Positions 6,000 through 64,000 of a stretch of 64,000 bases of DNA are shown one piece after another. Below the pieces are notes generated by a model. It did not search any database and had not been told where the DNA came from. It saw only the letters and a program-made list of their open reading frames with translations. The position numbers and the translations under genes were made by a program. How positions within the stretch are numbered: the first letter of the stretch is position 1; every line of letters begins with the position of its first letter. Source of the DNA: Azolla caroliniana (taxonomy: Eukaryota; Plantae; Polypodiophyta); contig JBHGNT010000010.1 in NCBI GenBank assembly GCA_043228905.1, positions 8,618,001 to 8,682,000 of the forward strand, read 5' to 3'.

Positions 6000-6734
6000 T
6001 GTCGTAGTGTGAATAACACACTACGTGAAAGTTGTAAAATACTATATCCGATTTAAAGTACGTATAATAAATAAAATAAAATATTAAAAATATTTATTAC
6101 GTGCTTAGGGTAGGATTCGGCCCTTGTTCCTCCACGTAAACAAACCCCAACCTTACCATTGCACTAACTTATCCTAAGTGTTCTAAATATAGATTTAATG
6201 TGTATAAGACCTTCATTTACGCCTACCTTTATTAAAAGGAAAGTTATGCATTTTGTAGAATGCGTGAATACTTTATTTATAAGAAAAATGTACACCAATA
6301 AAAAATGACTTGTGCACATCTAGCGAGCATGAGCACTTTATTTAGGAAATAAAGGCATAGTGTAAAAAGGTAACTCATGCACATTTAGTGTGCATGAACA
6401 CTTTAGAAAAAAAAGCATGAAGCTATGCTTAGCCTCTTCCATCCTTATATAAGGAGGAGAGAATGATGTATGGGGGTTGTTGATTATTTTACAAGGTTTG
6501 ATTAATATAATATAATCGTGGCATTCACGAATTTGTTAACTATTTTTCTCTCTTAATCTGAGTACTCACTAATACACTATACTCGTGCGATTCACGAGTT
6601 TTTCATATCTTTCTTTCTTACAACATATTTCATATTCTTCATTGCTTTAGAATATTCTCATCTCCTAGTCCAAAACCTTAGTGGTTCACACCCTACTCAC
6701 GCAAACAATCCGGCGCCGAAAGGCACGACACAAG

Positions 6735-6752
6735 TGGTGAACCCGACGTGAA
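6735..6752 (+). promoter_or_regulatory. Primer binding site, tRNA-Trp(CCA)
   Basis: TGGTGAACCCGACGTGAA is the reverse complement of the plant tRNA-Trp 3' end ...TTCACGTCGGGTTCA-CCA. Confidence 0.85.
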
Positions 6753-6768
6753 AACGGGTGGCAAGGAG

Positions 6769-8804
6769 ATGGAAAATCAACCGGAGGCTAACAACATGAT
6801 GATGATGTTCGAGCGGATGGTTCTGGAACAACGTGCGATGTCGGAGATAGCGGCGGTAGTAGAGCGGTTCGTGCAACGGATCAGGCAATTCAACAAAAAG
6901 GACGTATCACGCTATCTTCGGGACTACAAGGCGGAAATGCTACGGTGCGGGATTTCGGAAGGACTACAAGTGGCATCCTTCAACCGGGTGGTTACCGACG
7001 GGCTTCAAGCAAGTATCCACGGGCTACGACAACAAATTTCGGCGTGGGAAGCGTTTGAAGAGGCACTAAAGACCATGTCTGCTATCGAGGACTCCTCCAA
7101 GGCAACACGAAGAGGATTCGAGGATTGGGTGGAAACGCCAGACAAGGGTATGAAGGTCCTCGATGTGTTTTCGGCATTCGAAAGTCAGTTCGGGAGGTTG
7201 TTTGCGAGAGATCCAGTTGTCCTCGCACCAGACAAAGTTATCATGTTCTTACGAGCCGTAGACCTCCGGAACCGGAAGGATCTTGGAGTGCTTCTAGGGG
7301 ACACGAATACCGAGAGTGGCCTCACCGAAACATGGGAAAGCATGCGGGATATTGTCGCGCGATACACAAAGAAGGGGAAATGGTTTGCCAACGAAGAAAA
7401 GAGGGTTTCAGAACCGATTGCGAAACCAAGATCCGGATCGGAAGACCATCAACCGCGGCCTCGGGAAGCTTCGACCGAGAAGGGAATCGACGCAACTACA
7501 GTGGAGCAGTTGCTGAAGGAGATGGAGAATCTAAAAATCGTGATGGTGAAGAAGTCGGATGACCATCCCACAAGTTCCAAGTATATGGACCATCGGTGCA
7601 TATGGTGCGATAGCACCGAACATGATCGAAGGGATTGCGACGAGCACAAGGAAGCGCTACGGCGAGATCTTATCTACTACGAGGGAAATTAGATTCATTC
7701 AATCGACTCTCGGAAGCCGCTCCGGCCGAACTTCCGAAAAGGCGGCATGAAGAAAGTCCTAGAGGAGGAAATAGCGGCGAAGAGCAATTACGCGACAACC
7801 GCAGGAATACGTGTCAGGGTGTCATCGGGAGCAAAGGTGTCTTTTTGGCCGGAAGTGCTAGAAAACATCGAGAAAACCGACTCCAACGAGATCCGAAGCA
7901 CCGTGGAAGGCATCGGAAGCTACGGGATGGGAGTGCCCTGTCGATAAGAATAGCGTATACACCCTATGTCAATTGCATGAAGTGTATGTGGATGAAAAAC
8001 GATGGCGCACGGATGATGCGGCCGGACCATCAAAGACACCGGAAAGCTGGAACTCCGGAGGGAAGGGAAAAAAAAAGGTGATTCCGGCATTCAAGCCCGC
8101 CTCGGACATCGAACAACAAACGGACTTGAAAAAGGTGTTCGAAGAGAGAATCCTTGACAGCCGGGTAAATTTTTCGCTTTGGGAACTACTCGGAATAGCA
8201 AAAAAAGAGTTCCGTGATCTTCTTGTGGATCTCATTAAAAGAAAAAGACAAACTACGGAGGAAAATGCGCCGATGGTGAATGCAAATACCGTTCTGATGA
8301 ACGACACCGAAGTGGAAGACGAGATTCTGAATTCCCACTATACAAAGCCACACTGGGTGCGTGCAACTACGGAGACTCCAGTCCGAATCGGCAGCATCAA
8401 AGAGCCCGTGCTAGCATTGATTGATCACGGAGATCAATTTGATGTCCAAAGAGTTCTACCGGAAGGGGAACTGGCCTATATACACTAACCATGGATGGAA
8501 GATCCGGCCAGCCACTAAAGCAACGGAAGATCTATTTGCGGCTTGTCCGGATGTGATGGTGAAGATCGGGGATGTCGAGATCGACCAAAATTTCCTCGTA
8601 CAAGAAGAGGTCTCACATTCCGTGATCCTCGGGCAACCCTTTATCATGGCTTCACAGATGGAGACAAAGGTGCTCGATAGCGGTGCGGCTTTTGCACAAA
8701 TTCGGAGCCAAAACGGAGGGAAATCCGTCCAATTCCTAATGGTGCTGGCAAATCATGAAAGGAACAAGAGAGAGCTCTTGTCCCAAACAAGAATGGATTT
8801 TTAG
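6769..8804 (+). pseudogene. gag: Gypsy gag-protease (disrupted)
   Basis: CIWCDSTEHDRRDC zinc knuckle; ALIDHG..EINLMS aspartic protease; premature stop at 7690-7692 and frameshifts. Confidence 0.85.
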
Positions 8805-11411
8805 AGCGGATTGTTGCGGACTGGGGAAGTGATAGTCCGAGAAGCCCTGATACCCCACACAGGAAGAAACCTCTTGGAGCAAAACAAGTACAAATCGGTC
8901 CGGATGGGGCATCTACGTACACGGTCGTAACTGGAGGAAAGAAGAAAGAATACCGAAAAGTGGAGGATAAGTTATGGTCGGCATCAATAATAAAAGAAGA
9001 CGAAGAAATCGTGGGAATAGTCAAAGAAGTGTTCTATGGGAGCATGTTACAACGGCTTGAAGAGCTCGCGGAAGATACAAGCCATGGAAACCGGGTAGTC
9101 CGAAAGTTCGTAGTCGACCATATTCATGATTGCGAGAAAGTGCTTCGAAAATTAGAAGATGTGCACCTAACACTTTCCGGTGAGAAATCGGCATTCGGGC
9201 AAGAAGAAATATTGGTAGTCGGACATCTATGTGGGCCCTATGGCCGAAGACCGTCACCAACCAAGATCGATGCGATTCAAGCTATGAAAGAAGTATGCGA
9301 GTCACAATCCGAAGTCCGAAGGTTTCTTGGAGCATGTGCGTTCTATCACATATGGATTCCGCACTATGCACATATTGCGGACCCACTCTATCACTTGTTG
9401 CGGAAGGGTAAGAAGTTCGAATGGAAACCGGAGCATACCAAAGCCGTGAAGAAGCTCAAGAAATCACTACGGAGGGCAAAAGCACTAAAGAAGCCGAACT
9501 ATGACCGATCGATCATAGTAACGGTTGACACAAGCCCAACCGGAATCGGATGGGTCATCAATCAAGCTGACTCGGATGGTTCGCGATATCCGATCCGATT
9601 CGGATCAAAGGTTCTAAACAAGAGGCAACGTGGATATGCACAAGTCAAAAGAGAATTATGGGGAGTCGTGTCGGCAATCAAATCGGATCGAGATTATTTG
9701 ATCGGAGCCCAAGTAGTGATCGAAACGGATTGTCTTCCAATACTCGGGATGATGCGGTGTTGCACGATACCGGATGTGGCTATGCTAAGATGGATTGCAT
9801 ATGTTAAGTCACTTAATCCAGAGGTACGACACATCTCCGGAAAAGACAACTGGTAGCGGATATGCTATCAAGGGCGTGGTTCGGAGATGACATAACCGAA
9901 TCCGATAATGAAGAAGTTTCCGAAGACTACTTTGCTTCGGAGCACATATGCTGGGTGAACGTAATCCGAGAATTCCGGGAAGAAGAATACGAGGGAGAAA
10001 GCTTGCTGATCGGGAAAGTGCTACAAGAAATCGAGGAATCATCGGACAATAAAGAGAAGAGAGCCGAGATCTGAAGTAAGAAGCGGAAAGTTCAAAAGTT
10101 CTTCTTGAGAAATGGATTAATATGGAGGGAGCTGAAAAGACCGGATGGCATACCACTTCGGGTAGTCAGGACGAAAGATCAACGAAACCGGATAATATCC
10201 GAATTTCACGGATCCGATTGGGCTGGACATCAAGGAACGTGGGCAACTTTTCTGAAAATCAAACAAAAATATTGGTGGAAGAACATGTACAAAGATATAA
10301 CGGAGTTCACGGAAAGCTACGAGAAGTGTCAAATCTACTCCGGAGTTCGACACCGAGATGAGTTACATCCGACATTATCACTAACAATCAACTTCAAATG
10401 GATGGTCGATATTGTAGCCATGCCAACCGGAATCGGACAAAAGAAGTACTTGGTGTTCGCTCGGGAAGATCTCACAAACCAAGTAGAAGGACGGGTGTTA
10501 CAAAGGAAAATGTGTTCTGCAGTATGCCTATTTCTTTTGGAGGAGGTGTGTTGCAGGTACGGGTGCGTAGGACAAGTGATTGCGGATCGGGGAGAACTCA
10601 ACTCTGATAAAGCTAAGGAATTCTTCACCAAACATGGAGTTCGGTTAACACTGACAACGGCATACAATCCGGAAGCCAACGGGAAGATTGAACCAGGACA
10701 TAGTCCGATCGTCAAAGCACTTGCGAAGGCATGCGATGGAAGGGTGAAGGATTGGTCGCAGATGCTTCCGTATGCACTATGGGCGGATCGGACGACGCAT
10801 AGCTCCGTAACCGGTTACATGCCGGTAGAACTCATGACCGGACAAGCACTAGTGATGCCAACGAAAACCGCGATCGCGACATGGACAGTGCTACCGTGGA
10901 AGGAAGAGATGAGCCGGGAAGAACTACTAGCGGTCCGGATACGACAACTAGAGGGAAGACTAGAAGACATAGCGGAAGCAATACGCCGACAACAAGAAGC
11001 GCGATTCCGGAATAAAAGCTGGTTCGACACAAAGCACCGACTACGACCGCGGAAATTGAAGAAGGGGATTGGGTGATTGTCTACGACAGTAATTTGGATC
11101 ATCAACATACAACGATGCGGAAATTCGCGAAAAGCTTGTCCGGGCCATATGAGGTTCGCAAAGTTTTCGACAACGGAACATACCGACTATGCAAGTTGGA
11201 TGAAATGATGCTACGAGTGCCTGAAGCCGGGAAACGGGTGAAGATTTTCAAGAAGCGGACTGATGAAGAACCCTATGTGATCCTAGACAAGACCGACAAA
11301 AAGGAGCAATCGGACGAAGATCGTGGTGATGCGGAAAACAAAGAAAGTGGATTACAACTCATAGTCGACTTAAGGGGAGAATCAGAGGAAGCTTCGGATG
11401 AAGGTGAATAG
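8798..11411 (+). pseudogene. pol: Gypsy pol remnant: RT C-terminus, RNase H, integrase
   Basis: VRRFLG, VDTSPTGIG..QVKRELWG..ETDC (RNase H); GHQG..W, VIADRGE..TAYNPEANGKIE (integrase); GPY motif. Confidence 0.9.
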
Positions 11412-36635: not shown

Positions 36636-39600
36636 TGTTAATCGTAGGGCCGAACAACAGCCTAACACAGGGTGTCCACTTAAGACACTTCACCAAAGGG
36701 TGTTACGGTAGGATGACTTACGACACAACGTTTAATTAGACCTTAATCAATTACTTAGCAACACATCATTAACACGTGTAAGATATAACAATGAGTACAG
36801 AACGGTAATCAATACTGAAAGATTAAGGCAATAAGCTCTATTAATTATCCGCTCTCGATTACATTGTAACCAAACCTTTATATAGGTCTCCGGTGCGAAA
36901 TACAAAATGGTACCAACCAACACCTATTCAGAATCGGTCTGGATCCGGATCGGCATACTGATTTCGGTCCGTCTGTCCACATCTTCTCATATATTAATAT
37001 ATATTAAGACTACTAATTACAACAGTTCCCGAATAAACTATTCCTTTCACACTCTGGTTTGGATCTCCTTAAGCCTTCTTGCCAACCGGGTAACACATGG
37101 CACGCCCGTGGGACAGTACCTTGTACGTCGAACCCATTATCTGACCCTGTTACACTTCGTCCAAAATGTCCAGAATGCTTTGCTCCAGAATTTCCAATGG
37201 CTCGTCGGGAATCTGTTGTTGTTCCTGTGGCTGTTGTTCCATTTGTGGCTGCTGCGGTGGTTGCTTTGTTTGTGCCTTCTCCGTTTCGGGCTGCTGCTCC
37301 GTTTGTTGCTCTGGCACCGGCGTTTCCTTCGCTGTCTCTTCCGTCGGAGTGGTCGTTGGCTGACTGATCCTGGCCTGGTCCCTGTCTGGTCCTTGTACCG
37401 GCGACGGTTCCTCATCACTAAGGTTGACCGTTGCCGCCTTCCTTGCTTTTTCTTCCCAGAGCCAGGACCGCTCATAGCTCTCAAACTGGATTTGAGCCTC
37501 CAACCGATCGTCGTCCAGTTGAGCTACGAGCTGCCGGACCTACACTAATTGTTCATCCGCCAAGGCTGTGAAATCTTCGGCTAGCTCATCCCTTATGGCG
37601 GTGAAGTCCTCCGATGTCAACGTATAACAGTCGTCACCCTCCTTTCGCCGGTTTTCCTCGTCTGCCCTGAGCAATTGGAGTTCAGCCGTGTACTTCGCCC
37701 ATTTCGTCCACCATCGCACAGAGCTCTCGTCAATCAAGCTTTTGGTCTTGGTGAGCCATGACCGGAGGATGCACTGGATCCGTTCGGTTCCCACCCGTGA
37801 TTTGTTCTCTGCGGCTTGTCGCTCCTCTTTCAATTGCTTGATGATTCAGACCGTGCCCGCCTCCTGCTCCCTATAATGCGACAATTGACTTTGATAGGTT
37901 GTTTGCAACCTCTGTAACACCATTGTCACCCTTTCCTTTTCTTCATGGTTCTGCTTGTGGAGCTCCATCCGGTCCATCGCCGCTTCCTCCAATAGCTTGG
38001 AACTCTCAGCTCGTTCGTCGGCGAGTGCCGTTGTGGCCCTATCAACTTCTTGCCGGAGCTCGGTCATCCGTTCCTGCTGTTGCTTATATTCCATCTCCAG
38101 CTGCTTGTAGTCTTGGTGCAGATGATCAAAATCATCGGTCTTCTGCTTCAGCCTTTGGTTGATTTGCCGGCGTGCACAGTCCTCCCGGTCCTTCTGTTGA
38201 CGGAGTTCTACCTTCAGCCTTTCGATTTCCGTCGCCGCCATCTGTCGCAGCTTGTCTTTCTCCTGCAAAAATTTCTCTTTTTCCTCCTTTAGCCGGTCGT
38301 ACGCGTGATTTCCTTTACGCAGGTTTTCCTCTGCCCAGCGGAGGTTCTCAGCAGTCTTCTTTAATTCTTCTTCGGCTGCCTTCTTGAAGTCGCGTTCGCG
38401 GCTACGTAATGCTTCTTGTGCAGCCAGTTCGTCTCGTAATTCCGCAAGGTCTTGGGCTTGCGCCGCATCTTTCTCCGAGACAATTTTTGTCCCCGGGGTC
38501 TTATTCATACGTACATCAACCAGAGTCACCGGTACTTGGATCTACCTTGCTGTTAAGGCCATTTTGGCCATGTCTCCTGTGATCCGATCCAAGTCTTGTT
38601 CGAGGCACCCGATCCTTGACCGGGCCGTCTCCAATTCATCGGTTGTGACGAGCAACTGTTCCGTTTGCACTCTTTCTTCCGCCTCTATGCATCCGACTAC
38701 TCCGGCAATTTGTTCTCCTATCCACCGGAGCCATTGGCTGCCGATGCACTGTTGTTGCGTCTGCACGGCGGGTTGGCTGATGGGTTCACTTGTTGGTAGC
38801 TAGTCCCGCCTTACTGCGTCGAGCTGCACTTCTGGTACTGCCTGTTGACCACTTTGCCATTCCGGCTCTAGCTGTGTTTCGGCTAGCCGCCCCTTGTCTG
38901 CTTGTTCTTGGCCGGCTGAGGAGGTTAGCCTTTGTATAACTTGCTCTTGAATTACGGGGCTTGCCGGTGCTACCTGTTGTGAAGGGACTTCTATGACCGG
39001 TTCCATCCGAACAGGTTCTGGTGCCTCCCTTGGCGTGGGATGCTCATTGTGAGTTGCGGGCATTCCATCCTTCTGTGGGTCCGAACACTTCCCGGCTGAT
39101 TCAGCGGTGCTCTTCACCGGCCGCCGTTGGAGGTGCTCCGTGGGTTCTTCCTCCATTTCCTCCGCCTGAGTCCCGGCATTCATTCTTGCCGCCAAGGTGT
39201 CCGTTTCTTGCTGCACCGGTCGGTGGAGTGGGCTCTTTAGGGGTCGTGCCGGTGTCTCCTCGTGTGTGTCCGTCGGCCGCTTCCGGTTGGCGCGCTCCTT
39301 TGCAGCCTTCTCTGCATCGACCGTCTTCTCCTTAGTGGCTTTGGAGGCCAACAACTATTGCCGTTTCGAAACAGGTTTCGGGGTGCCGTCCGTTGCTCTC
39401 CCCCGCTTCTTGGTCTGGACGGGCTCGACAGGTGGTGCCAATAGGGTGAGCCATTGCGTCACCGCATGCCATATTTTCTGGCCTTCCTTGCCGTCCTTTC
39501 CTCTTACGATATCAATAGCCGTACACAGCCCGTCGGCGATCAACACTGGCCAATCCACGTTGACCCCTTCATACGTCGCGATGATCAAGCCCGCTCGGTT

Positions 39601-40550
39601 CTGAGGCATAACGGGGGGTCAAGGGTATACGTGGCCAAACTCATGGAGTACACGGGCAATTTCGCGGAATAACATGTCTTCGTCGCCCTGTGTCCTGTAG
39701 CCTTTGCTAGCGAGAGAATACTCACCGAAATATTTGATGAGCTACTCGGAGGTAGGATTGTCGATCGTGTAGATGCCCCCCTCCAGAAGGCCTGTTAACG
39801 CACGGATCGCCTCCTCCGTGATCACCTCTATGTCGATTTCTTTGATAATCTTTTCGGCCTCCTTGTGTGGCGCCGCCTCCATGATCGTCAAGAAACCCTC
39901 CAGTCTGTGTTGCCGTAGCCATTTCTTGGCGGCTTCAGACAATGTTTGGCAATCCATCTCTGCGTCGAGGTCGGAGAGTGTTGGCGAGGTTTGATGGTGG
40001 GGAGAGTGTGAGAGAGCAAGTTTTGAGTGAGGGGGTTCTCTGTGCGCCAATCTCTACGATTGATCTTCACGCGTCTGTCTGCGTCTGTTCTCCTTGGTTC
40101 ACGAAAGGAGAAGGTCTCGATGCGTGGGGGTTTTTCTCTCTGCATCTTGGCGTCTTTTCGAGACTATGCATGTGCAGGTCGTGTACTATAATAGTATTAC
40201 GTGCCATGTGGCGGTGGTTTAATGTCCTATTCATAGCCTCCTCGTACATTTCCGAAGTGCCTCTTTACTCCTCGTCTGCATGGTCGTTCCCACCACTCCT
40301 TTCCATGATTTCTTTGATTCCATTCGATTTTTTTATTTTTTTTATTTTTATTTATTTTTATTTATTTTATTATTATTATTTATTTTAATTAACTCTGTGG
40401 TTAATTTTTCTCCGGTCCTAACGGACCCTTACCCGAAATGTGCACCTTGCCGGTCTCTTGACGGTTCGCCGTTGTTTTGCTTTCCCCGGTTGCTGGCTCG
40501 TGCTCCTCCTTACCGGCTTGGTGGTAGCCGTTTTCCTCACGGGTTGCCGT
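36636..40550 (-). mobile_element. 3' part of an LTR element (LTR 36636-37095 plus long extra ORF), related to the outer element
   Basis: TGTTA...TAACA LTR with CCTATATAAAGG on the minus strand; its end (CCTACGATTAACA) resembles the 62110 end; ORF homologous to 57157. Confidence 0.75.
37150..40050 (-). pseudogene. Retrotransposon extra ORF: conserved N-terminal domain plus long coiled coil
   Basis: ORF pieces 39742-40050, 39355-39609, 38800-39354, 38542-38766, 37846-38529, 37540-37833 and 37150-37503. Confidence 0.75.
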
Positions 40551-40559
40551 CGTGGTTGG

Positions 40560-43500
40560 CTTGCCGCCTATTCTAGTTCATAGGTATGCACCGCTCTCGC
40601 CACCATTAATCACTCCACACACACCATCCTATTCGACTCTGGTAGTAGTATCTCTTCAATTAGCACCGCCTTAGTTCACCAATTAGGCCTCCCCACAACC
40701 ATCGCTCCTTCCATCCAAGTCATTTTTGGCGATCTCCAACATCTTTACCACTCTCGCACGCAAGCCCATTGCACCGTTACCTTAGGCACTCTCACATTCT
40801 CACCCCACTTTTATGTCTTGCCCCACCAACTCTTCCCCCTCACCTTAGGTTGCGATTGGCTCCTCAAGCATCGCGCTATGATTGATTTCGATGCTCACAA
40901 ATTGATTGTCCCACAAGCTCCCCCTATCCCCCTCCTCCACGATAGCCCCCATGTCCCCCACCTCAGCCAAGTCCAAGTGGCGCTCAGTCCCAAGGAGCGG
41001 TTAATCTCTGTCCGCCAATTGTTAGCTCGTTTTCCATCACTAGCCCCCCAACCCACGCATGCCGCTACTGTCTCTTTCCCGGTACAACATGTCATTCGTA
41101 CCGGGGATGGCGCTCCCATCCGCATGGCTACACACCGACGTTCCTCCCTCGACCATGATCGCATCGATGCTGCCGTTACCGATATGCTCACCAAAGGTAT
41201 TATCATTCCTTCCACTAGTGATTGGGTTTCGGAACCCCACCTCGTCAAGAAGGATGATGGCACCTTCCGCTTTTGCATCAACTTTAGGCCTCTCAACAAA
41301 GTGATGATCCATGACCGCTACCCGCTCCCTCCTGTGGACGACCTCTTGGAGCAGCTCGGGGGCTCCCGTTATTTCCCCTCCCTCGACTTAACCTCGGGAT
41401 ATTGGCAGATTCCCTTAAAGCCGTCTGACGCCCACAAGACCGCATTTCGCACACGATGCGGCCTGTTCCAGTTCACCCGCATGCCGTTTGGCCTGTCTGA
41501 CGTCGGCAGCACATTCCAACACATGGCAAACTCCATCTTTGCTGACCTTATCAATAAAGGCGTCCTCCTTGTTTATCTCGACGACATCCTTATCCACACG
41601 ACCACTTGGGAGGATCATCTACAAACTCTCGTTGAAGTCCTCACTTGCATAACTAAGCATAACTTGCAACTCCAATGGAAGAAGTGTAGATGGGGAAGCA
41701 CCAACCTCCGTTTTCTCGGCTTCATCATCTCTAGCGATGGAATCCGTATGGACCCTCCAAAGGCAGCTGCCATCACCGACTACCCCCGCCCCACCTCAAT
41801 AAAAAAATTGCAACGTTTTTTGGGCATGATGACCTTTTCCCTTCGCTTCATCCCGAACCTCTCCTTGGTCACTTTCCCCCTCCGTTATCTCCTAAAGAAA
41901 GGTGTGTCATTCGTTTGGGATCCTGCTTGCGAAGACAACTTTCGTCGCCTCAAAACAATGGTCCAGGAATCAGGGTTGCTCGCCCATCCTAACTTTGACC
42001 AACCGTTTACATTGCAGATAGATGCCTCTAACCATGGGTTAGGAGCCGTCCTCCTACAAACTAATTGCCACGGAACTACAAGAGAAGGCGGTCGCCTTCA
42101 TTAGCCGAACTCTCATGCCGGCGGAACGGAACTACTCAAGCACTGAGAAGGAACTACTTGCGATTGTCTGGTCTTTCCAGCGTCTTCACCCATACCTTCA
42201 TGGCAGGCTGGTTACGGTTGAGACTGACCACCAGCCCTTACTTTCTCTGATTCATCGACCTCACCCCCCGGGCTGTTTGTTGCAATGGACATTGGCACTT
42301 CAAGATTATTAGTTTACCCTCTCCTATCAAAAAGGTGTAACCAATTTGGTCGTCGATAGTCGAGTCTCTCGCGCCGATTTCCAAGTTGTCCAATTTCTAC
42401 TCGCGACATCTGACCTTCCAGTACCACTACCACAACTCGCTACACTTCAGCAACACGACCCCGCCATCTGAGAGATAACCCATCAGTTGCGCTCCCTCCA
42501 ACCATTTCCCTCACAACGACGGTTCATGCTCCGCGATAACTTGGTGTTCTTCATTCAGGCGCATCACGAGCCGCGTCTCTACATCCCTCATGCCCTACAA
42601 TAGACGTATCTCCAATTTTATCACGACCACCCATTGTCGGGTCATCTGGGTTTCCACAAGGTTCTTGAAAAATTACGTCTCAAGTATTATTGGCCCAACA
42701 TTCGACACTCTGACTCTACCTACATCAACCAATGTGCTTTGTGTCAACACATCAAACCCGCAAGCAGGCCCGCCGGAACGCTCCAACCCATCACCGTCAG
42801 ATCGCCTTTCGAGCTCGTCGGATGGGATTTCATGGGACCTTTTCCCGAAACCCCCAGTGGCAACAACTATATCCTGGTCATAACAGAATACCTCACCAGA
42901 TGGGCTGAAATTGTTGCCATCCCTGACGTCACTGCGCCAACAGTCGCATCCCAACTTTTGCACAAGGTAATTTTTCAACATGGTTGCCCTGTCCAACTCT
43001 TATCTGATCTGGGCCGCCAGTTCCATGGGGATGTCCTCAATGCGGTTGCAACTCAACTAGGTGTCCAACAGGTGTTTACATCCCCGTACCATCCACAAAC
43101 AAACGGCCTCACCGAACGCCTCAACAAGACCCTCAAGTAGGAGATTTCCGCTTACATCGATCCAGGCCAGAAAACCTGGGATCAAATCTTGCCTTTCGTC
43201 ACCCACGCCTACAATACATCCATTCAAGCGTCAACACGAATCAACCCTTTTCGAGCACTCTATGGGCGTGACCCTCGGCTCCCACCAGAACCGTCCATTG
43301 ACATCCATTCCAAACCTACCAACATGGATGGTGCCACTTGGGGACTCTATCTCCAACAACTGCTACCTCTCCTTCGACAAGCAAGCTCTCGAAACCTACA
43401 AGTCGCACAACAATGCCAAAAGCGACACTACGACGTGGGTCGAATTACCCCAACTTACATGGGTCCTTGTTTACTTCCCGGTCCAGCGGCACGGTCTCAG

Positions 43501-43906
43501 CGAATCACTCATGCACCGATGGATCAGCCCATTCACCGTGGTTCGTGCAATTAAATCCACGACTTACTTGCTCTGACGCGATTCCAATGGTCGCTTCACC
43601 TCCGCCCATGTTGCCCGCATCAAGCCCTATGCTACCCCAAGCCCATCTTCTAGCGCTCGTCCTTTCCCCATGTCGTAAAAATCCTTGTTTCTCTCAGGGG
43701 GGAAATGTGGTGTCCCTTGGATGCAAGTGCATGCCTTCATGTTGGGTGTGCATGTGTTCCTTTGTGCCCCTTTTAGCATACCCTTGTTAGGACGCATGTA
43801 GCTAAGTAGAGCCAACCCAAATGGGTACCTTTGTACGACTATAAATTGAATAGGAAGTAAGAAGCTAAGCAAGCTGCTTTTGGATTCCATTTATGTGCAT
43901 TTCACA
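40560..43906 (+). mobile_element. 5'-truncated Gypsy element (PR-RT-RH-INT, PPT, 201-bp 3' LTR)
   Basis: ILFDSGSS protease; YLDDILI RT; DASNHGLG RNase H; YHPQTNGLTER integrase; PPT AGGGGGGAAA ~43696-43705; LTR 43706-43906. Confidence 0.9.
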
Positions 43907-44039
43907 GTATGTTATTAACATTATAAAGGTTTATTTTATTTTCATTACGTATTTATCGTATTGTAGACTTTTAATGTGAAGCTTTCGTACTTCACAACAT
44001 CCACCCCCTCAAGACCTGCGCATCCTCCGGCATGTGGCA

Positions 44040-47000
44040 CTATCTTTCATCTTCATGTTGATGTATTGGAGGAGGTTCAAGCTCAAACCTTTTCTTAAAT
44101 ACTTTTATCCTCTTTCCAGCTACCACGTTTAGGATTAGTGTCCCATCCAATTCACTAAGCTTATAAGTAAAGTTAGCATATACTTTTCTTACTACGTAAG
44201 GCCCAAAGCATCTTTCAGCAAACTTGCGGACCGTGCTATGTTGATTATCTAAACTGCTATCATACACAAGTACCCAATCCCCTTCTTCTATCTTCTTATG
44301 TTGAATTTTGTGAGTTTTATCAAAACGAATTTTATTCTTCAATCGAGCCTCCAAAATCGTTGGGCTACTAATTCTACATCTTCAGGCCGACGCTCTAATT
44401 GTTGAATTCGCAAAGCCAACAATTCTTCTCTGCTCAACTCTTCTCTCCATGGAATAGATGTCCATGACATAATTGACCCTTCTATTGGCATGATGGGCTT
44501 TTGGCCAAGTATCAATTCAGCTGACATATATCCTATTACCGAACTATGTGTTGTTCGATATGCCCATAGTGCATACGGTAGCATGCGTGGCCAATCTCTT
44601 ATTTTACCTTTACAACTTTTCACGATTGCCTTAACTATTGGGCTATGTCCTCTTTCAATCTTCCCATTGGCTTCTGGATTATATGCAGTTGTAAGTGATA
44701 ATTTGACCCCTATCTGGCTAAAGAATTCTCTAGCTTCATGAAAGTCAAGTTCTCCTCTATCTGCAATTATTTTACCAACACACCCATAACGACATATTAC
44801 ATCTTCTAAAAATAATTTACATACAACTCTAGTTGTTTTTTGTCGTAGTGGTCTTCCTTCTATTTGGTTTGTAAGGTCTTCTCTTGCTAGTACTAAATAT
44901 CGCATTTGACCTTCCTCAAGTGGCATTGTCACTAGATCAACCATCCATTTATAATGCATTGATGATGAATATGTTGGTTTTAACTCATCTCGATATCGAA
45001 TAGTTGAATACCTTTGACACATTTCACAAGTTTCCACAAATTTCATTACATCTTTATACATATGTGGCCACCAATACTTCTCTTTTAACTTCATAAATGT
45101 CGCCCATATGCCTCTATGTCCTGCCCACAAACTATCATGAAATTCAGTCATTAATTTGCTTTTAATATCATCCTTACAAATGACTCGAAGAGGATTTTCA
45201 GTTGGCCTTTTTGGGCGCCGCCATAGATGCCCTTCATATAAAAAAATTTGAATTCTCTTCTTCGAAATTCATTTAGTTGTTTCTTTGACCATGATGGGTT
45301 GGCTTCTTGATTCTTTAAAAAGTTTCCTATTTCTAACCATTTTCCTTCATATTCTGTGTCTTTGAACATTGTGCTTACATTAAACTCATCATGAGGCTTA
45401 CTAGATATTTGATGAGCAACTCGATGGCTTGTAGTTGCCCAATTCTTATCTTCAGTTTGCATCACATTTTCATTTATGAACCTTGCCCTTGACAGCATAT
45501 CTGCAACTGGGTTGTCTTTTCCCTTTACATGCCGCAATTCTGGGTTCATGGTTCTGATGTATGCAATCCACCGAAACATTGCAATATCTAGTGTCGTGCA
45601 ACTTGCTACCATTCCGATGAGTGGCAAACAATCAGTTTCAACCACTACATTTGCTCCGATCAAGTAATCTCTATCTGTTTTTTAATGCAGTAAGCAAACC
45701 CCACAATTCTCATTTAACTTGTACATAATTTCTTTGTCTATCCTTTAATATCTTTGCTCCAAACCTGATAGCATATTGATGTTGGTCTTCATCTTCTTGG
45801 TTGATAACCCAACCGATCCCAATTGGGATAGTATCAATTGTCACTATAATTGGTTTTTCACCTTTGTAGTCTAGTTGACGAAGAACTGGAGCTTTCAATA
45901 ATGCTTCTTTCAGCTGTTGAACAACTTGTGTATGTTCATCAGTCCAAATAAACTTCTTCCCTTTTCTTAAAAGTTGGTAGAGAGGATCTGAGACACGTGC
46001 AAAGTGTGGTAACCAAATATGATAAAACACACATGCACCCAAAAATCTTCTCACCTCTGTTACTGAGTCGCAAACTTCCTTCATATTTTGTATTGCGTTA
46101 ATTTTGATCGGTGAGGGCTTCCTCCCATACCACCCACACATATGACCAACTATTAGAACTTCGTTTTGCCCAAAGTTAGACTTTGTTCTTGATAGTGTCA
46201 AATGTACCTGCTCAAGCTTATTTAAAATACTTTCACAATCATTAATGTGATCAATCACAAACTTTCTGCAACCATTTCCAACCATAGTCTCATCTTTCTC
46301 TCTTTCTAAGCATCCCTTAATAGGAATATCATCTAAAAATGGCATAGTTACCTTTGGGATGTACTCATGTAGAACCTTGTTCATTGCATTCATCATATGA
46401 GCAACTGAATTTGTCGCATCTTGAGGTAGAGTGCACATTCGAACCAACCCAATTGGTGTTTTCATTGTTGTGATATTGTGACTATCAATTGTTAGTTGAA
46501 ATTGGTCATATCCTGAATATAGGTCTCCCATAGAGCAAATTGCTCTCCCAGCATAAGCTTCCGCAAATTCATCACCGATCGGGCCGATTCCTGCATTTCG
46601 GATTGTGACTTTGTTGACTGGTTGTAGATCTTGAATGAATCTTAGAGAACCATCTTTCTTTGGAACTGTGAACCATCGGTTGGAGTATGGTGCATTTGAA
46701 GGCTCTAAAATCTTCATCTTGACTTTATCCTTCAACAACTCCAACAATTGAGGTAATCGAGCTCTTGGTACTGCAATAGGTTTAAAATTCCAAGGAATAT
46801 GAGGGATAGTAAATATCACCATTGGTGTTACCACCTTTGGATCTACACAACCAATCTCCTCGGCTTTGAATGCGAACGCTTTCCCATGCCTAAAGATCAT
46901 GTCTTTGAAAGTCATGATCTCCGATTGTAGAAGAAATGCACCCCCTCCGACTCTTAAGTTATTTATTGTATCCGAAGTGCAGTGATGTTCAATCTTCTCT

Positions 47001-47569
47001 ATTGGTTGAAGCATAGGCTCAATTGATGTTGCCTTTATCTTCTCTTCGCTACCAATAGGTAATGGTACTACAACAGGTTTAATCTTTTTATCTATTGTTT
47101 TATATTTTGTGTTACATAAACCTTCTACTTCTTCATATTTACAAGTATACTTATCAATTTCATAATACATATCAATTGAGTTTACATGTATCTTTCTAAC
47201 ATTCTCATCATCTTCTTTCAAATACACTTCTAACTCTTCTAAAGTATTTGCAAAAGAAATATCTTCCATAACACTTTCAATCTGCTCTTCCATTTCAAGT
47301 ACTCCATTATCCTTCAATGTCTGCTGAAACAGATTAACATTCTTTTTCAAGTTCCTCTTGCATTCATACATCCTAGTCACACATATAGCACCACTTTCAG
47401 AAACATGAAATGACTTATACATATGTTGTAATGCCCTATATGAGGGTCTTTTAATAATGGGACTATTGCAACCCTCACTCACAATAGTCCTAGTCAAAAA
47501 CCTGATTATCAAAATCATCACAATCCTTTGGTATTGAATGATCACGAAGCTCTTGCTTGTTCCTCTCAT
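44040..47569 (-). pseudogene. pol: Gypsy RT-RNase H-integrase
   Basis: RFIQDLQPVN, DLYSGYDQF, PFLDDIPI, ETDCLPL, TAYNPEANGKIERGH, GPY. Confidence 0.9.
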
Positions 47570-49664
47570 GATTTGGGCGAACTGTCATAAATTGTACAGT
47601 TCGTCGTCCATCTTGGCTACGGATTTTCGCATAGGCAGAACCATTGTCGAGGACTTTGGTCTCCATCTGTACCGTTGTAATGTATGGTTGCCCCAAGATT
47701 ATTGGATAGGTAGATCCTTCCTGTACAAAGAAATGTTGATCTACCTCTATATCACCAATAGTAACCTTTACATTTGGGCATGCACCAAATAAATCTTCCG
47801 TGACTGATGTGGCAGCTTTTACTTGCCAACCATGTTGAGTATCAATTGGCCATCTACCTTTCTTGTAAAAATCAGCACTCATTATATTTATTTTAGAACC
47901 ATGATGAATAAGTGCCATCACGGGGTCTGGAACATTTCCAATCTTCACACGATGCTCAATAGTGGCTCTTGCCCAACATTTGCGAGAGTAATGGCTTCTT
48001 ACATCTATTGAATTTATCATTGAGGTCGATGCATGTTGAGAGTCAACAATGATATTGTTTGACTCGTTGCTCACCACTTCATATGCCACCTTCGGATTTC
48101 TCTCTTTCACCTGCTCATTTACTTGCTTCTTTCTTCGCACAATACCAATTATTTCATCATGAAATTCCTTTTTTGCAATACCTAACACTTCTCTTAGTGT
48201 CAATTCTACTTGACTGTCGAGTATTCTTGTTTCTAAACCTTTCTTTAAATCTATATCCTTTTCAATATGAGACATTAATTTGAATGAAGGACCAGATTTA
48301 CCTTTTTCGACTTTTGCGTCCATCTCTTTTCTTTTGCTTTCTCTTGTCTCATGCTTTTTTGTTGAGCCAATCTCATCGTCCGACCTTTTCCTTTTTTCTT
48401 CCACTATCACCTCATGCTCTTGGTGTTCTGCCATCTGAGCATAGACCGTCATAGCATCTACTGGAACATCCCATCCAGTGCTTTTCCTTATAGAATCTCC
48501 AACAACACAAAGGTCTTCCATCTTCATCTTTTGCTTTTGTGCAGTACTTACAACCTTCTCCCAGAATGATGATCGGGATGGCATGTCATCGAGGCGCATT
48601 CCTACCATTGCCGAGTAGTACATTGCGGAAGCCTTCTTTGCTTCAGCTTCTTCAAATTTAACCTTAACACCACCATCACCAAAGCTCTTTGTAAGTGGAC
48701 TTCTAGTTTCAGTTAAATAAATGTTACCATTTTTCCAATACACCAAGTCTCGATTTTCCATGTCTTTATATTCTTCACAATCACGTAGACGATGTTCGAG
48801 ACTATCGCACCACATGCATCGGGGTCGAAATGGTTCCCTTGACCTCAAAGTTTGACCATTCTCAAGCTTTGCCACTTAAATTGTTAGATCTTTCATACTT
48901 TGAACTAAATAATCAAGAAAAGATTCACTCTTAGTTTCAATCATTTCTCGTGGTTGATGGACCATTTCGTGTGACGGTTCTCGAACAAGTCTTTGAACTT
49001 CGATGTTTTGCTCAAGCCGATTTGTGATTCCTATAGGTGAAATTTGCAACATTGCACCATTCCTTTGCATTCTTTTCATAAATTTATTACAAGCATTTGT
49101 TACCTCATTCCAATCTGCAGTTATACCATCCTCGGTATTTGGTACTTCAAGCATAAATTCCAATTCTTTTCTATATCTCTTGTCAACTGCCTGCAAAAAT
49201 AAAGCAACCTTTTGCCAAGACAAAGAATTTCTTTCTTCTGGATTTAAGTGTCCATACAATCTATCAAACTCTTTTTTCGTGTCAGCCACAGATAATCCTT
49301 TATTTTCTTTTAGGACCCATTCATGGAATGAACGCATAGTAACGTAAGAGAAATCCTCACGAGCATATTCAGACACAAGGGCTTCTTTGAATGCCTTCCA
49401 ATCCAAACTATGCAATGTTTGTATTTCATGAATTCTATCTCTTAATTCCATGTCCACTAATTTATAAAAGTTTGCTATCATATTGACTTCATTCATACCA
49501 GACATTTCCATTTCATCATAATATATATTCACATACTTCGAAATATTTGTGCCATCAAACATACCAATCTTCTCTCGAACTTCTCGTAAGGCATGAATTA
49601 ATCGATCTTGATTCAACTTTTCAATAAACAACATTACCGGATCCATTGTACTCATACTTGCCAT
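47490..49664 (-). pseudogene. gag: Gypsy gag-protease
   Basis: CMWCDSLEHRLRDC knuckle; protease with mutated active site; one in-frame stop at 48876-48878. Confidence 0.85.
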
Positions 49665-50933
49665 GTTGATGTTGATCTTTACTTTAGATGTCTCTTCTAC
49701 TTCCCCATTTCACGTCGGGTTCACCAGATTGTGTCGTGGCGTGGCTCGCCTAGAAGCGTACCATTGCATAGACAAACGATATCGTCAAAGTGAGGAAGGA
49801 ATCATTGGAATCATTTAAAACGAAAACAAGACATATACTTATATACATTATAAGTATAGGCTAAATAGTAAGGTGTGAACGCCATAAGGTGGAGGTTGTT
49901 GGTTCAAATCCTCTTTTGCCCATGTAATTTGTGCATGTATTATATTACATGGTTTAGATTATAAAATACTACTTCAAATCATATATTATTTTGTAAATGA
50001 TTAGTATAGGTTAAATGGTAACCTTTGAGTGTCATAAGGTAGGGTTTATTAGTTCAAGTCCTCTCTTGTCCATGTAATATAATAGATATATTTTATTTTT
50101 GTCTCTACCTATATTGTATAATATTATCATAGTATGTTATTAACATTATAAAGGTTTATTTTATTTTCATTACGTATTTATCTTATTGTAGACTTTTAAT
50201 GTGAAGATTTCATACTTCACAACATCGGCGGCTGCCCGAACCGGGAATAAGTATATCTTGGTGGCTATAGATTACTGCACCAACTGGGTAGGAGCGAAAG
50301 CACTACGCGAAAATACTGCAGCAATCACGGAGAAATTCCTTTACGAACATATCTGGTGTGGTTTTGGCTACCCTATTGAGCTCATCAGTGACCAAGGGAG
50401 TCACTTTCGGAATACGGTCATCAGCGAACTGACCCAACACTACATCGTGGTCCACAAAAAGAGTACGTCATAGTACCCATAGGCAAATGGCTTGGCCGAA
50501 TCCACGAACAAAACATTACAGACTATCCTCAAACAGATAGTCAATGAGAATAAAATAGATTGGGGTACCAAATTGCACAGTGTAGTATGGGCATATCGAA
50601 CCAGCTATAAGACCAACATACAATCCACACCTTTCCGGCCAGCATTTGGGCTGGAGCCCTTAATGCCAGTCGAATTCTAGGTACCCAGGCTGGGGATTCA
50701 AGTACGAGACCGGCTGCTAGAGGAAAAATCCGAACGAATACTGTTAAAACAACGGTTAGATCTAAACGAAACACGGTTACGCAATATGGCCTTATTGGAA
50801 TAGGAACAACGGTAGCGCAAAGCATTCGTGGGCCGACATCAGCATGCGCGTGAAAAGGATTTTACGATCGGGAAAGCGGTATTAGTTTTTCAAACACACA
50901 TGGGGCAAATGCAAGGAAAATTAAGATTCCGCT

Positions 50934-51604
50934 GGAAAGGCCCATACTAGATAGTTGGAGCGGAAAACGACACGTTTCAACTTGGCACCTTGGCCGGAGA
51001 AGTGCTACGAGAAAAGGCAGAAATCAATCTTCTAACCCTCATCGCTCTCATCGTTCTCCTCACTCACCTTCTTGTCCATCATACCATATAGGTCATATTC
51101 GCCATAGCCAGCATACCTCACCCTCTACCCACGAGTCTCACCCACCTACTATGCCGATTCCTATTTCTGCCGCCTTGCGTAGATGGCTTGTCGAAAAGCG
51201 CCTGGATGGATACATCAAAGTCCTCGAGGCACCCGCTCACCATAAAGCCCTGGACATTGCTAGGAAAATCAATATAGGCACGGTCACCAACACATCCATT
51301 CGGAAGAAGCTTGACCTGTCATCGCTTAGAGAAAGACATTTCGACATGCCGCCTGCGGAAACCTTACAGAGATATTTCGGGGCATATTCGGCGTATGCCA
51401 AGGCATACAGGACAAAGGAAATCCCCGACCCCTTCTTTCGTGAAATAGCCAAGTTCTTGTTGGAGGTCGGATGCGTGCATGTAAATGCCTATGGGATGCC
51501 AAAGCCGAAGGCAGGAATCATCATTGATACCTTCGAAGGGCGCGCGGTCGATTGGGGGGTCATTACGGGACCAACGTTACGGGAAGGCTTGCACGCGTAT
51601 CAAG
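50934..51604 (+). repeat. 671-bp direct duplication (second copy 56939-57609)
   Basis: Near-identical; 3 differences seen by eye. Confidence 0.9.
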
Positions 51605-56938: not shown

Positions 56939-57156
56939 GGAAAGGCCCATACTAGATAGTTGGAGCGGAAAACGACACGTTTCAACTTGGCACCTTGGCC
57001 GGAGAAGTGCTACGAGAAAAGGCAGAAATCAATCTTCTAACCCTCATCGCTCTCATCGTTCTCCTCACTCACCTTCTTGTCCATCATACCATATAGGTCA
57101 TATTCGCCATAGCCAGCATACCTCACCCTCTACCCACGAGTCTCACCCACCTACTA

Positions 57157-59411
57157 TGTCGATTCCTATTTCTGCCGCCTTGCGTAGATGGCTTGTCGAA
57201 AAGCGCCTGGATGGATACATCAAAGTCCTCGAGGCACCCGCTCACCATAAAGCCCTGGACATTGCTAGGAAAATCAATATAGGCACGGTCACCAACACAT
57301 CCATTCGGAAGAAGCTTGACCTGTCATCGCTTAGAGAAAGACATTTCGACATCCCGCCTGCGGAAACCTTACAGAGATATTTCGGGGCATATTCGGCGTA
57401 TGCCAAGGCATACAGGACAAAGGAAATCCCCGACCCCTTCTTTCGTGAAATAGCCAAGTTCTTGTTGGAGGTCGGATGCGTGCATGTAAATGCCTATGGG
57501 ATGCCAAAGCCGAAGGCAGGAATCATCATTGATACCTTCGAAGGGCGCGCGGTCGATTGGGGGGTCATTACGGGACCAACATTACGGGAAGGCTTGCACG
57601 CGTATCAAGGCGGAAAAAAGCTAAGGCCAATCATACAATAGTATTTGACGATACTATTCCCACCCCGAGGTCTGCCCACACCACAGCCCAGTAAACCCAC
57701 GCCACTGCCACGATCCGCGAAACGGAGGTTAGCGGAGTTGGCCACCACGGAATGGGAGGATGAACCCGAATCGGCCCAACCCAGCACGCGGACAACACAG
57801 GAAGAACGGCCAAAGCGCAGGGAGGAAGCTCCGCAGAAGCAGGAAGCCAAGTGAAGCCAAGGAAACTCGAGGCCAAAATGGCGAAGGCTGGACAGGAAAG
57901 ATGGGTGCGAATTGGTTAAAGACACACTCACGGCCACAGAGACGACCGCCATGGTCGATAGTTCCGTAGCTATGGATCCCAACAGCACTTTCGAAATAAT
58001 CTGGGAACCACGGCCGATCATTACGGCCCACTCACAACGGGGCAAAGGCGTATTTACGGAAGAAAGCGATGTCCTGAAGTATCCGGACATTCTGGACACA
58101 ACCCATGAGTTCGGCGCACTATTACAGTTCGGAACTACTTACGAACTCATGGAATTTTTGGCGATGCAACAAATAAAAGTCTCACAATGAATGGCCGAGG
58201 ATCACGCGGAACAACAAATGATTGAGCACGCGCTAACACAAACGGCGGAAAGCGATGATGAGGGGCCGCTAGCCAGAGTAGGCAGACAGCGGAATGTCAG
58301 TATACGCCAAATGGGAATTGAACTACCCCCATTAAACGCAGCCCTCATCGAGTTTCATAGGGAACTGGCTCAAGTCAGTATTGGCCCCAAAGATATGACG
58401 ATTAAAAACAAAAATGTTTGGAAAACGGTTAAACAGACCCAAGCTAAGCTACAAAAGGCCAACGAACGCATCACAGAGTTGGAACGGAACGCAACTACGG
58501 CACAACAAGAATCTCGACCAACAGACAAAACTGTCGAGGCCCAGACCCTAAGAGATGAGGTTGAAGCCCAGACTGCCATCACCTCAAAAGTAAAGAGGGC
58601 CATGCAGTTGGTGGAATCCAAGATTGACCTCCTCCACTCCGAACTCCGCCATTCCTCCGACAGAGAAAAGGACATCCAGGCCAAAGGCCGAAAGGCAGTG
58701 AAGGACCTCGAAGAGAAACTCAAAGCGGAGGCAGCCGCGCACACCCGCACGAAAGAAGAAAACACCAAACTATGGGAGGAACCGTAAAAATCAGAAACGG
58801 CGATCATAGGACTCCGGGCATTATTGGAAAAGAAGAAATCCTGGTACGACGAGCTGCTCGTATGGGAACAGGAGGTGAGGCATTAGGTCAAAATCCACCT
58901 GAACAATGAAATGGGAAAGCTGGAGGAATTACACTTGAAGGAATCTCAGTTATGGGTAGGAATGAAGAGCAATTATGAGGAAGTGGCGGCGGTCAATAAG
59001 CAAGAAATCGAAAACCTCAAGAAAACCCTGGAAGAAGTGCGTAACCGCTGCCAAGTAATAGCCGACAACATGCGCATACTTCTTCAAACAAATCGGGAGA
59101 GGTTTACAGCGCAATTACAAGCGGCACCAAACAAAGGCTGGAGGGTGTGGGCTGCACAAGCGGTGGAGTTGCATACAGAAATAACTATGGTAGGCAGCAC
59201 GGGACAACGAGCGGAGCCCATCGCGATACCGGAAAGTGAGACCGCGGAACAGGAGGAACCTCAGCCCCATTCACCGGAGCATACGACTACGACCGGCAAC
59301 ATGGAGGAAGTTACGGATAAGACCGAGCCTCAACCTATCGAGAGCCCACAGACAGATGAGCCAGCCACAGTAGAACGGGATGAGCCAGCAAAGCTCGGAC
59401 CGCCCACATAG
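57157..59411 (+). pseudogene. Retrotransposon extra ORF (conserved N-terminal domain plus coiled coil)
   Basis: MSIPISAALRRWLVEKRLDGY..YFGAYS..FREIA..AGIII.TFEG..VDW is homologous to the ORF at 39355-40050; interrupted by stops. Confidence 0.75.
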
Positions 59412-59589
59412 GGAGACGTTGACACCATGGGAAGCCCCACCGAGCAAGTACAAGACATGGAACCGCGCAACGACGCGCCTGGGAGCACTACGTCGTCCCC
59501 GAACCAGGACATCGGGGCGGAACCAAACATACAGGTCATTTTGGAGAAAGAATAAAGGCGTGGTTCCGACGTGCCATGGCACTATACCA

Positions 59590-61730: not shown

Positions 61731-62343
61731 GCTTGTAATTTGGGTGCACACAGCGCTTTCGTAATAAAATATTATCTTCTCTAAGTTCTATGCATATCTC
61801 TGGTTTGTTCTCTACTACGCTCTTGAGTATATCCATCTTTCGAAAGCGCTCTTGAGTATATCCATCTAAGTTCTCTACTGTGTTCTTTGTTCTCTATTGC
61901 GTATTGTTAATCGTAAGGGTGTAGGCGTGAGTGCGGATACTAGTGCACTTCCCAAGGCATTCAGTTGTAGCCATCTCCCTTATACGCTGCTAGGATACGA
62001 GGGAGTATCCCATTACGTATTACAGTGCGACGGTACCATTCCTTGCAACATAGTCACCTTGAAGTCTACGTCGAAGGACTGACCGTAGACGGTGTTCCTA
62101 ATCGATAACACTCAATATAGGTGGACATATACAGACTCGCAAGTTGCAAGGATAGATCAGTTCCAAGAGCGTCAGATTGAATATCTGAATATCATTGTTC
62201 GATACACCTTCATGTTTAAGGGGTAGTGGATGAGACTAGATATCTAAACGTAATGTTGATCTCTAGTTGATCGGTCAACTTTAATAGACAGTTATTCGAG
62301 AATTTTGTTTATGAACCATAAAGACAGTATTTGATGGGAAGTT

Positions 62344-62416
62344 GCGGGGAAAAATCAGTTGGAAGAGCGTCAGACTGAAGATCTGAAGGTCACGTGTTTG
62401 ATCCACGTTCACCGCA
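62344..62416 (+). pseudogene. tRNA-Phe(GAA) pseudogene
   Basis: A box and B box mutated. Confidence 0.8.
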
Positions 62417-62947
62417 AAAGGTAACAAACACTTTTGAGAGACATATTTGAATGCATTATTTGGCAAGAATTCTTCGAATGAAATGAACATATAAACATCA
62501 TGTTAATGTCGACAAGTCTTGTTCTTTTCGGTGACAATATGGTCATATTTCATGCTAATTCCATCTTGAGAGAAATGTTTAAGGGGGAGTCAATGAGACG
62601 AGATGTTCAACGTTAATTGAATTAATCAACTGCAAAACCACAACTAAACGTAATCCTAATCTCTACATGATCGCGAAACTTTAATGCACACTCATTCGAG
62701 ATTTTTGTTTATTAACACCAAATAGGTGGAAATATACACACTCGCAAGTTCCAAGGATAGATCATTTGCGAGAGCCTCAGATTGAATATATGAATATCAT
62801 AGTTCAATACATGTTCATGTTTAAGGGGGAGTGGATGAGATAAGATATCTAAACATAATGTTGATCTCTAGTTCATCACTCAACTTTAATCCACAATTAT
62901 TCGGGGAATTTTGTTTATGAACAATATAGACAGTATTATGGGAAGTT

Positions 62948-62960
62948 GCGGAGATAGCGT

Positions 62961-62995
<35 letters not shown>

Positions 62996-63020
62996 ACGTG
63001 TTTGATCCACGTTCACCGCA
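62948..63020 (+). pseudogene. tRNA-Phe(GAA) pseudogene
   Basis: D-stem and B-box substitutions. Confidence 0.8.
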
Positions 63021-63551
63021 AAAGGCAACAGACCCTTTTGAGAGAAACATTTGCATGCATTATTTGACAAGATGCGTACGCATGAAATAAACATATAAAC
63101 ATCCTGTTAATGTCGACAAGTATGGTCCTTTTAGGTGACAATATCGTCATTTTTCATGCTAATTCCATCTTGAGCGCAATGTTTAAGGGGGAGTCGGTGA
63201 GACTAAATATTCAACGTTAATCGAATTAATCAACTACACAACTAGAACGAAATATAATCCTAATCTCGACTTGATCGCGAAACTATAATGCACACTCACT
63301 CAAGATTTTTGTTTATTAACCCAAAATAGGTGGAAATATACACACTCACAAGTTGCAGGTATACATAAGTTGGGAGAGCGTGAGATTGAATATCTGAACA
63401 TCATTGTTCGATACACGTTCATGTTTAAGGGGGAGTGGATGAGACTAGATATCTAAACGTAAAGTTGATCTCTAATTAATCGCTCAACTTTAATCCACAG
63501 TTATTCAGCAATTTTGTTTGTGGACCATAGAGACAGTATTTGATGGAAGTG

Positions 63552-63559
63552 GCGGGGAT

Positions 63560-63601
<42 letters not shown>

Positions 63602-63623
63602 ATGTGTTCGATCCACCTTCACC
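63552..63623 (+). pseudogene. tRNA-Phe(GAA) pseudogene cut at the inversion junction
   Basis: TA insertion; 3' end joins the inverted spacer at CCC. Confidence 0.8.
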
Positions 63624-64000
63624 CTTAAACATGAATATGTATGGAACAATGATATTCATATATTCAATCTCACGCCCTCCCAACGGATCTATCCCTGCAA
63701 CTTGCGAGTGTCTATATTTCCACCTATTTTGTGTTAATAAACAAAAATCTCGAATGAGTGTGCATTAAAGTTTCACGAACAGGTAGAGATTAGTATTACG
63801 TTAAGTTGTGCTTGTGCAGTTGATTAATTCAATTAACATTGAATATCTAGTCTCATCGACTTGCCCTTAAACATTGCGCTCAAGATGCAATTAGCATGAA
63901 ACATGCCCATATTGTCACCCAAAGGACAAGACTTTTCAACATTAACAGGATGTTTATATGTTCATTTCAGTCATAGATTTCATGTCAAATAATTCATTCA

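Follow-up and report, generated by a model that had tools for sequence, protein, structure and literature searches.

An LTR retrotransposon lineage in the genome of Azolla caroliniana carries a site resembling the 3′ end of tRNA-Arg(UCU) in the place of the polypurine tract (PPT), and from sequence comparison it is likely that a second host tRNA anneals there to minus-strand DNA and primes the plus strand. Probably an old LTR lineage of non-seed plants has dropped the PPT altogether, with host tRNA-Arg priming both strands, the second on a DNA template. The motif is real, lineage-wide and functional-looking. What is new here is a set of primer fossils, in which mature tRNA is fused to the outer U3 end of the LTR.

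The tRNA-like site and its surroundings

The window, that is, the whole stretch of DNA analysed (64,000 nucleotides of contig JBHGNT010000010.1), holds the 3′ part of a family-A element on its minus strand; the family letters A, B and C are labels of this analysis. The 3′ LTR in coding sense (36636–37095) is 460 bp long and runs TGTTA...TAACA, with boundaries set from 30 loci and from the 5-bp target duplications of full-length copies. No partner of this LTR was found within the 64-kb window. A putative TATA-like box recognized by sequence match, CCTATATAAAGG, lies in coding sense at 36875–36886, on the minus strand as the original prediction had it. Next to the LTR comes a 2-nt spacer (37096–37097, minus strand; CA, or TG in coding sense) that separates it from the CCA and recurs in the family's tRNA–LTR fusions; under the best reading these would be the first bases of the plus strand. 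The proposed second primer site, TGGCACGCCCGTGGGAC, occupies 37098–37114 (minus strand), where a one-base-deleted match to tRNA-Arg(UCU) had been predicted 2 nt inside the LTR, and is a sense copy of tRNA-Arg(UCU) nt 59–76 minus one C. It is the sole match in the window at up to three mismatches, compared with a mean of 0.02 in shuffled sequence, and a chance match is excluded.

Further into the element on the same strand lie a 13-nt insert with the short hairpin GTAC-AAG-GTAC (37115–37127), whose stem letters differ among families yet pair, and a 9-nt T-arm match, TGGGTTCGA, corresponding to tRNA-Arg(UCU) nt 50–58 (37128–37136). An extra ORF 3′ of pol, in gag-pol sense, spans 37150–39957 (minus strand). 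It is coiled-coil-like and interrupted by stops and frameshifts in the window copy; no Pfam family matched it, and its protein atlas hits, all scoring below 0.8, are leads only. A non-coding stretch between pol and the extra ORF follows (39958–40566, minus strand). Family homology stops at about 40566, and the gag-pol and 5′ LTR of this copy are therefore absent from the window. An unrelated gypsy element with PR-RT-RH-INT (40584–43911, plus strand) abuts the cut end and has an ordinary purine tract near 43697.

The window also contains the truncated 3′ end of a related outer element (59560–59589, plus strand), which, aligned to the family-B copy C7b, comprises the T-arm match and the hairpin and is cut before the tRNA-like site. 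The motif predicted for this element, CGTGCCATG, is indeed present at 59570, but it is not the same site: in copies of the outer element's family its counterpart is the hairpin, which lies some 20 nt before the site, and the outer element itself ends at about 59589, short of the site. A further CGTGCCATG at 40200 was likewise rejected as a second site. Two copies of the outer element's integrase end, a 671-bp duplication with 99.6% identity at 50934–51604 and 56939–57609, flank a copia fragment. Elsewhere in the window are arrays of a 564–605-bp repeat with more than 20 copies (2700–27100 and 62000–64000, with an inverted copy at 63619–63926) and two gypsy elements with a DUF4100-like match, at 6682–11411 (plus strand) and at 44339–49709 (minus strand), the latter with LTR-like repeats at 43902–44001 and 50127–50226.

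Conservation of the site and the host tRNA

Host tRNA-Arg(UCU) genes end in ...GTCCCACCGGGCGTG, which with CCA added equals the site plus one C; the predicted correspondence to the host tRNA thus holds, the site being the tRNA 3′ end minus one C. Read as TGGCACGCCCGTGGGAC, it is complementary to the 3′ 18 nt of the tRNA with one base missing. A genome search gave 41 matches from the 40 candidates scored among 3,803, and 30 loci were fetched, the window's own included. The motif is present in all 30, with the LTR starting at an identical or near-identical base. It is unchanged in 14 loci, has one change in 12 and two or three in four, and all 22 changes are C>T or G>A. The deleted form of the site pattern has 2,304 exact matches in the genome (control, 0); the undeleted form has nine, all of which were inspected and none of which lies behind the hairpin.

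In an alignment of 19 rows from several families, the hairpin insert of about 13 nt precedes the site, and upstream of it stands the match to tRNA nt 50–58. The stem varies (GTAC/GTAC, GTGC/GCAC, GCGC/GCGC, GGAC/GTCC) such that letters differ and pairing is kept, with a few rows pairing poorly. When the 45 nt that precede the CCA were folded as RNA, this small hairpin was the only fold in common. Between site and LTR most families have a spacer of 2 nt and some one of 4 nt, and the site stands at a fixed distance in every family with its 3′ end seen, across a span of about 63% RT identity. Many variant tRNA-Arg(UCU) genes or pseudogenes are clustered on contigs C4, C11 and C22 (L088, L090, L092, L094–L096), and the primer tRNA family looks expanded.

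Architecture and orientation of full-length copies

Ten family-A copies were extended by 20 kb to establish orientation. In nine, gag or pol lies on the strand opposite to the motif; none has them in the same sense, and one has neither. The extra ORF shares the gag-pol strand. A second LTR was present in six of the ten, followed in five by a T-run and a 13-nt match to tRNA-Arg(UCG) with zero or one change, in coding sense; the sixth joint is lost. Since gag-pol is opposite to the motif and the other LTR is the one with a primer binding site (PBS), the LTR beside the motif is the 3′ LTR, and in the element RNA the motif reads as the tRNA's own 3′ end. The prediction that 36636–37095 is a 3′ LTR is borne out, and the option of a normal 5′ LTR and PBS followed by an antisense ORF is refuted, the extra ORF being in gag-pol sense and the real PBS being at the other LTR. 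No copy had gag-pol in the motif's orientation with a normal PPT at the other LTR.

Kin of the outer element, ten RT-anchored copies, yielded five LTR pairs, seven PBSs and five intact 3′ sites, with a PBS matching a host Arg(UCU) isoform over 14 nt. Ten further RT-anchored copies had both LTRs in range in seven cases, and all seven of these possess a PBS, a 3′ site and a 5-bp target site duplication (TSD). LTR identity in these seven young pairs is 95–99.6%. The LTRs of the lineage are paired TG...CA repeats, the domain order is gag-PR-RT-RH-INT, and the RNase H active-site motifs are intact in young open frames. As side observations, L216 (G000:C2:12742725), of about 3 kb, has no pol and keeps both tRNA sites, and L297/L298 (G000:C16:244901-259900) is a young element inside a 178-bp tandem repeat array.

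As predicted, there is no PPT before the 3′ LTR: the final 40 nt of each of seven elements inspected for this hold no purine run longer than 4–5 nt, and the tRNA-like site stands there instead. A purine tract is also absent on the antisense strand. Unrelated elements at the same loci, and L257, do end in purine tracts. A genome search for a PPT-bearing sister family gave only the same lineage. A scan for TATA-like words found them on both strands in some LTRs and in neither strand of two.

Copies of tRNA-Arg(UCU) fused to the outer U3 end

Eight of the nine undeleted-form matches represent five events in which sense tRNA-Arg(UCU) is joined to an LTR where U3 begins. Four of these (the C2 tandem, L216, C16 and C20) show their own 3′ site for comparison. 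In all four the fused copy differs from the element's own site: it is mature tRNA with CCA, it includes the C missing from the site, and it is without the hairpin. The spacers are the family's own, namely TG (C2), TATG (L216), AG (C16) and TG (C20). The C2 tandem, with three copies of one event, reads 57 nt of tRNA, TG and LTR, and the L216 fusion contains at least 50 nt of tRNA, with A58 read as T. The C20 fusion consists of exactly 18 nt of another isoform, followed by TG, LTR and PBS. In C16 the following unit occurs twice in tandem: the end of an LTR, the PBS spacer of 11 nt, a single T, tRNA sequence of exactly 18 nt, AG and the start of an LTR. This element has LTRs 99.8% identical and a 5-bp duplication, and its own site agrees with the tRNA in no more than the final 8 nt. 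Three more look-alike candidates are L212, L221 and L230.

The PBS is of Arg(UCG) type in C2, L216 and C20, so the fused copies there do not come from the minus-strand primer. A wrong-strand jump of the PBS tRNA copy is ruled out for these three events, the PBS there being for another tRNA. The 18-nt fusions fit copying that stopped at m1A58 or priming by an 18-nt tRNA fragment, and the long ones need nearly the whole tRNA as primer. As read from the genome, the fusions show that tRNA priming occurs at the site, and are not proof of the main route; that it is the regular route we infer because the PPT is missing and the site is conserved.

A different origin for the primer is unlikely: RNase H may excise the element's own tRNA-like RNA as a PPT-like primer, host tRNA priming being accidental. 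Such a primer would suit the element RNA, which ends in CCA at the correct distance from the LTR, and the structural maintenance of the upstream hairpin across families, and once removed it would leave no trace. Every clear fusion, however, has tRNA letters where the element's own site differs. With the patterns used, which would miss long, hairpin-containing primers, the deleted form was not clearly seen at any outer end or junction, and the 15 + 3 matches to it, except L228 and L229, are internal sites, insertions/deletions, undeleted junctions or chance.

The same fusions would be expected, and the difficulty with RNase H avoided, if tRNA-Arg(UCU) primed on an antisense 3′-end transcript and the product then switched to minus-strand DNA. 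TATA-like words on both strands of some LTRs are in keeping with this use of two RNA templates, but it requires co-packaged antisense RNA and an extra jump, and plus strands that read into the PBS tRNA need a minus-strand DNA template anyway; we regard it as very improbable.

Copies of the minus-strand primer and the direction of the template

The PBS matches host tRNA-Arg(UCG) or tRNA-Arg(UCU) over 13–14 nt. Patterns for tRNA copies that end in CCA and exceed the sites in length had 25 matches: one tRNA gene with genomic CCA, four outer fusions, and 20 next to the PBS spacer, inward of an LTR. In 12 of the 20 the element resumes mid-body in coding sense, and in none does a true 3′ site stand beyond the LTR. 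Under the established model of reverse transcription, as set out in PMC13191261 and PMC5371799, these copies would be the expected trace of plus-strand strong-stop DNA whose synthesis ran too far into the minus-strand primer and which then mis-jumped. Of 18 independent read-through events, 6 show a misread position 58, while the other positions together show 9 misreadings in 741, as would be expected for mature tRNA with m1A58. The read-through copies rewrite the PBS, and the 3′ site is never corrected. With PBS tRNA copies on the inner side and the 3′ site uncorrected, coding-sense RNA is the likely template.

Three further loci display unusual joints. At L213/L311 (G000:C16:17527317) an LTR–LTR joint retains the whole 11-nt PBS spacer and one T, so the cDNA U5 end would bear 11–12 extra bases for integrase trimming; among families these spacers range from 2 to 11 nt. 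L211 (G000:C597:96-116) is a fold-back of LTR-PBS, a tRNA-Arg(UCG) copy and inverted PBS-LTR. L197 (G000:C10:14180227) joins an LTR, the complement of 56 nt of the PBS tRNA and the start of another LTR, a head-to-tail joint containing the minus-strand primer.

The inner-side tRNA copies weigh against replication from an RNA antisense to gag-pol, which the original prediction had offered and in which the 3′ site would serve as the minus-strand PBS. The arrangement of LTR, 2 nt and TGG does resemble a textbook U5/PBS joint, and the spacer at the other PBS is odd (4–11 nt); but it is that PBS which matches host isoforms over 13–14 nt and is rewritten, and neither strand has a purine tract. We consider antisense genomic RNA highly improbable. 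That the site is left over from an old tRNA capture and has no function, with the plus strand starting at an unseen internal site, is scarcely credible despite the imperfect match to the tRNA and a purine-tract search that covered the last 40 nt before the 3′ LTR, given the fixed distance in all families with a visible 3′ end, the young intact copies and the matching fusions, which largely refute it.

Lineage placement and comparison with known elements

The element is a Ty3/gypsy non-chromovirus with some features of Athila only, and it does not fit Tat, Phygy or Selgy. Among named proteins the nearest come from Riccia, Marchantia and Adiantum (47–50%). Within the sensitivity limits of Pfam, two full polyproteins, 85% and 78% like the query, showed only one RNase H region, and a Pfam domain search found no chromodomain. 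In a quick tree with unlabelled rows the lineage falls among non-seed-plant RTs, apart from the seed-plant rows, with P0008 beside a 29-row clade (support 100).

Among metagenome loci, 8 of 80 extend to a 3′ site. L238, from another organism, is a full element of the same design with 63% RT-RH identity (93% like P0008); its LTR is preceded by an 8-bp hairpin, an end like that of tRNA-Arg(UCU), and AG, with no PPT. It has no clean TSD, and its PBS we take to be of Arg(ACG) type. The contig looks eukaryotic but is assigned to a bacterial genome bin, and the presence of this plant-type retrotransposon there is probably contamination; several other bins contain gypsy RTs too. Viral contigs gave no match.

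As described in PMC6317226, the Athila side of OTA shares with this lineage the gag-PR-RT-RH-INT order, the lack of an extra RNase H, a 5-bp TSD and an extra ORF after pol; its PBS is mainly for tRNA-Asp/Asn (supplementary file 3), whereas here it is for tRNA-Arg and there is no PPT. Tat, Ogre and Retand, in the accounts of PMC6317226 and PMC11963269, have in common with it a tRNA-Arg PBS and a long region from pol to the 3′ LTR with an extra ORF. The Tat-type label originally given to the motif does not hold, however: Tat has an additional archaeal-type RNase H, of which none was found here, and the Retand extra ORF is antisense between pol and the 3′ LTR, here sense (PMC6317226, PMC11963269). 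The 4-bp TSD, the PBS for tRNA-Trp or tRNA-Ala and the missing extra ORF that PMC6317226 gives for Phygy and Selgy are all at odds with this lineage. Tf1/sushi self-priming elements lack a tRNA PBS and have a chromodomain, in contrast to the PBS tRNA read-through copies and absent chromodomain of this lineage.

In the canonical scheme, as presented for Ty3 (PMC5371799) and HIV-1 (PMC13191261), the PBS tRNA primes the minus strand, tRNA copying halts at m1A58 after 18 nt, and an element-derived PPT directly before the 3′ LTR primes the plus strand; here a tRNA site is found and no tract. The bipartite PBS of Ty3 likewise places a second tRNA-related sequence near the RNA 3′ end (PMC5371799). 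Its 3′ part, according to the same source, is the complement of the tRNA and has a role in priming the minus strand, whereas here the element RNA carries the tRNA's own sequence, so that only the minus strand can pair with the tRNA. Among the aberrant LTR ends at LTR–LTR junctions reported in PMC13332604, an unremoved plus-strand primer extends the U3 end in the same way; the extension there is PPT, here mature tRNA. A literature search that included bioRxiv 2022.12.06.519325, with subscription journals and preprint supplements outside its scope, found no tRNA-primed plus strand.

A model for plus-strand priming

The plus-strand priming by a second tRNA that had been predicted is thus supported by the full-length copies and by the tRNA fused to the outer U3 end. 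In such a cycle, coding-sense RNA would be the template and tRNA-Arg at the ordinary PBS would prime the minus strand, as the PBS-side read-through copies suggest. RNase H, with its active-site motifs intact, would then clear the RNA, and tRNA-Arg(UCU), at times only as a fragment made up of its 3′ 18 nt, may pair with the exposed site, one base being bulged and the hairpin looped out. Plus-strand synthesis would run from the spacer through the LTR, a step for which the fossils speak. The primer would normally be removed, and the fusions could be the rare cases in which it was copied as far as position 58 or beyond and the copy became fixed in the genome. Against this model, the clear events are only four, and an efficiently removed self-derived primer would leave no fossils; the fixed one-base deletion and the substitutions in family C weaken pairing; and tRNA on DNA should be a substrate of RNase H. 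The site itself could have originated from a tRNA copy fused to an LTR that became the 3′ LTR, followed by the hairpin insert after position 58 and the one-base deletion.

Implications

A tRNA for the first strand and a PPT for the second are treated as general for LTR elements and retroviruses in PMC5371799 and PMC13191261. Annotation software that takes the orientation of an element from its PBS and PPT can flip such copies or miss them. If the proposed mechanism is true, the second primer would be exchangeable, as a thriving lineage with tRNA for both strands would show; the question would arise of how RT extends tRNA on DNA without its destruction by RNase H; and both strands would depend on the supply of tRNA-Arg.
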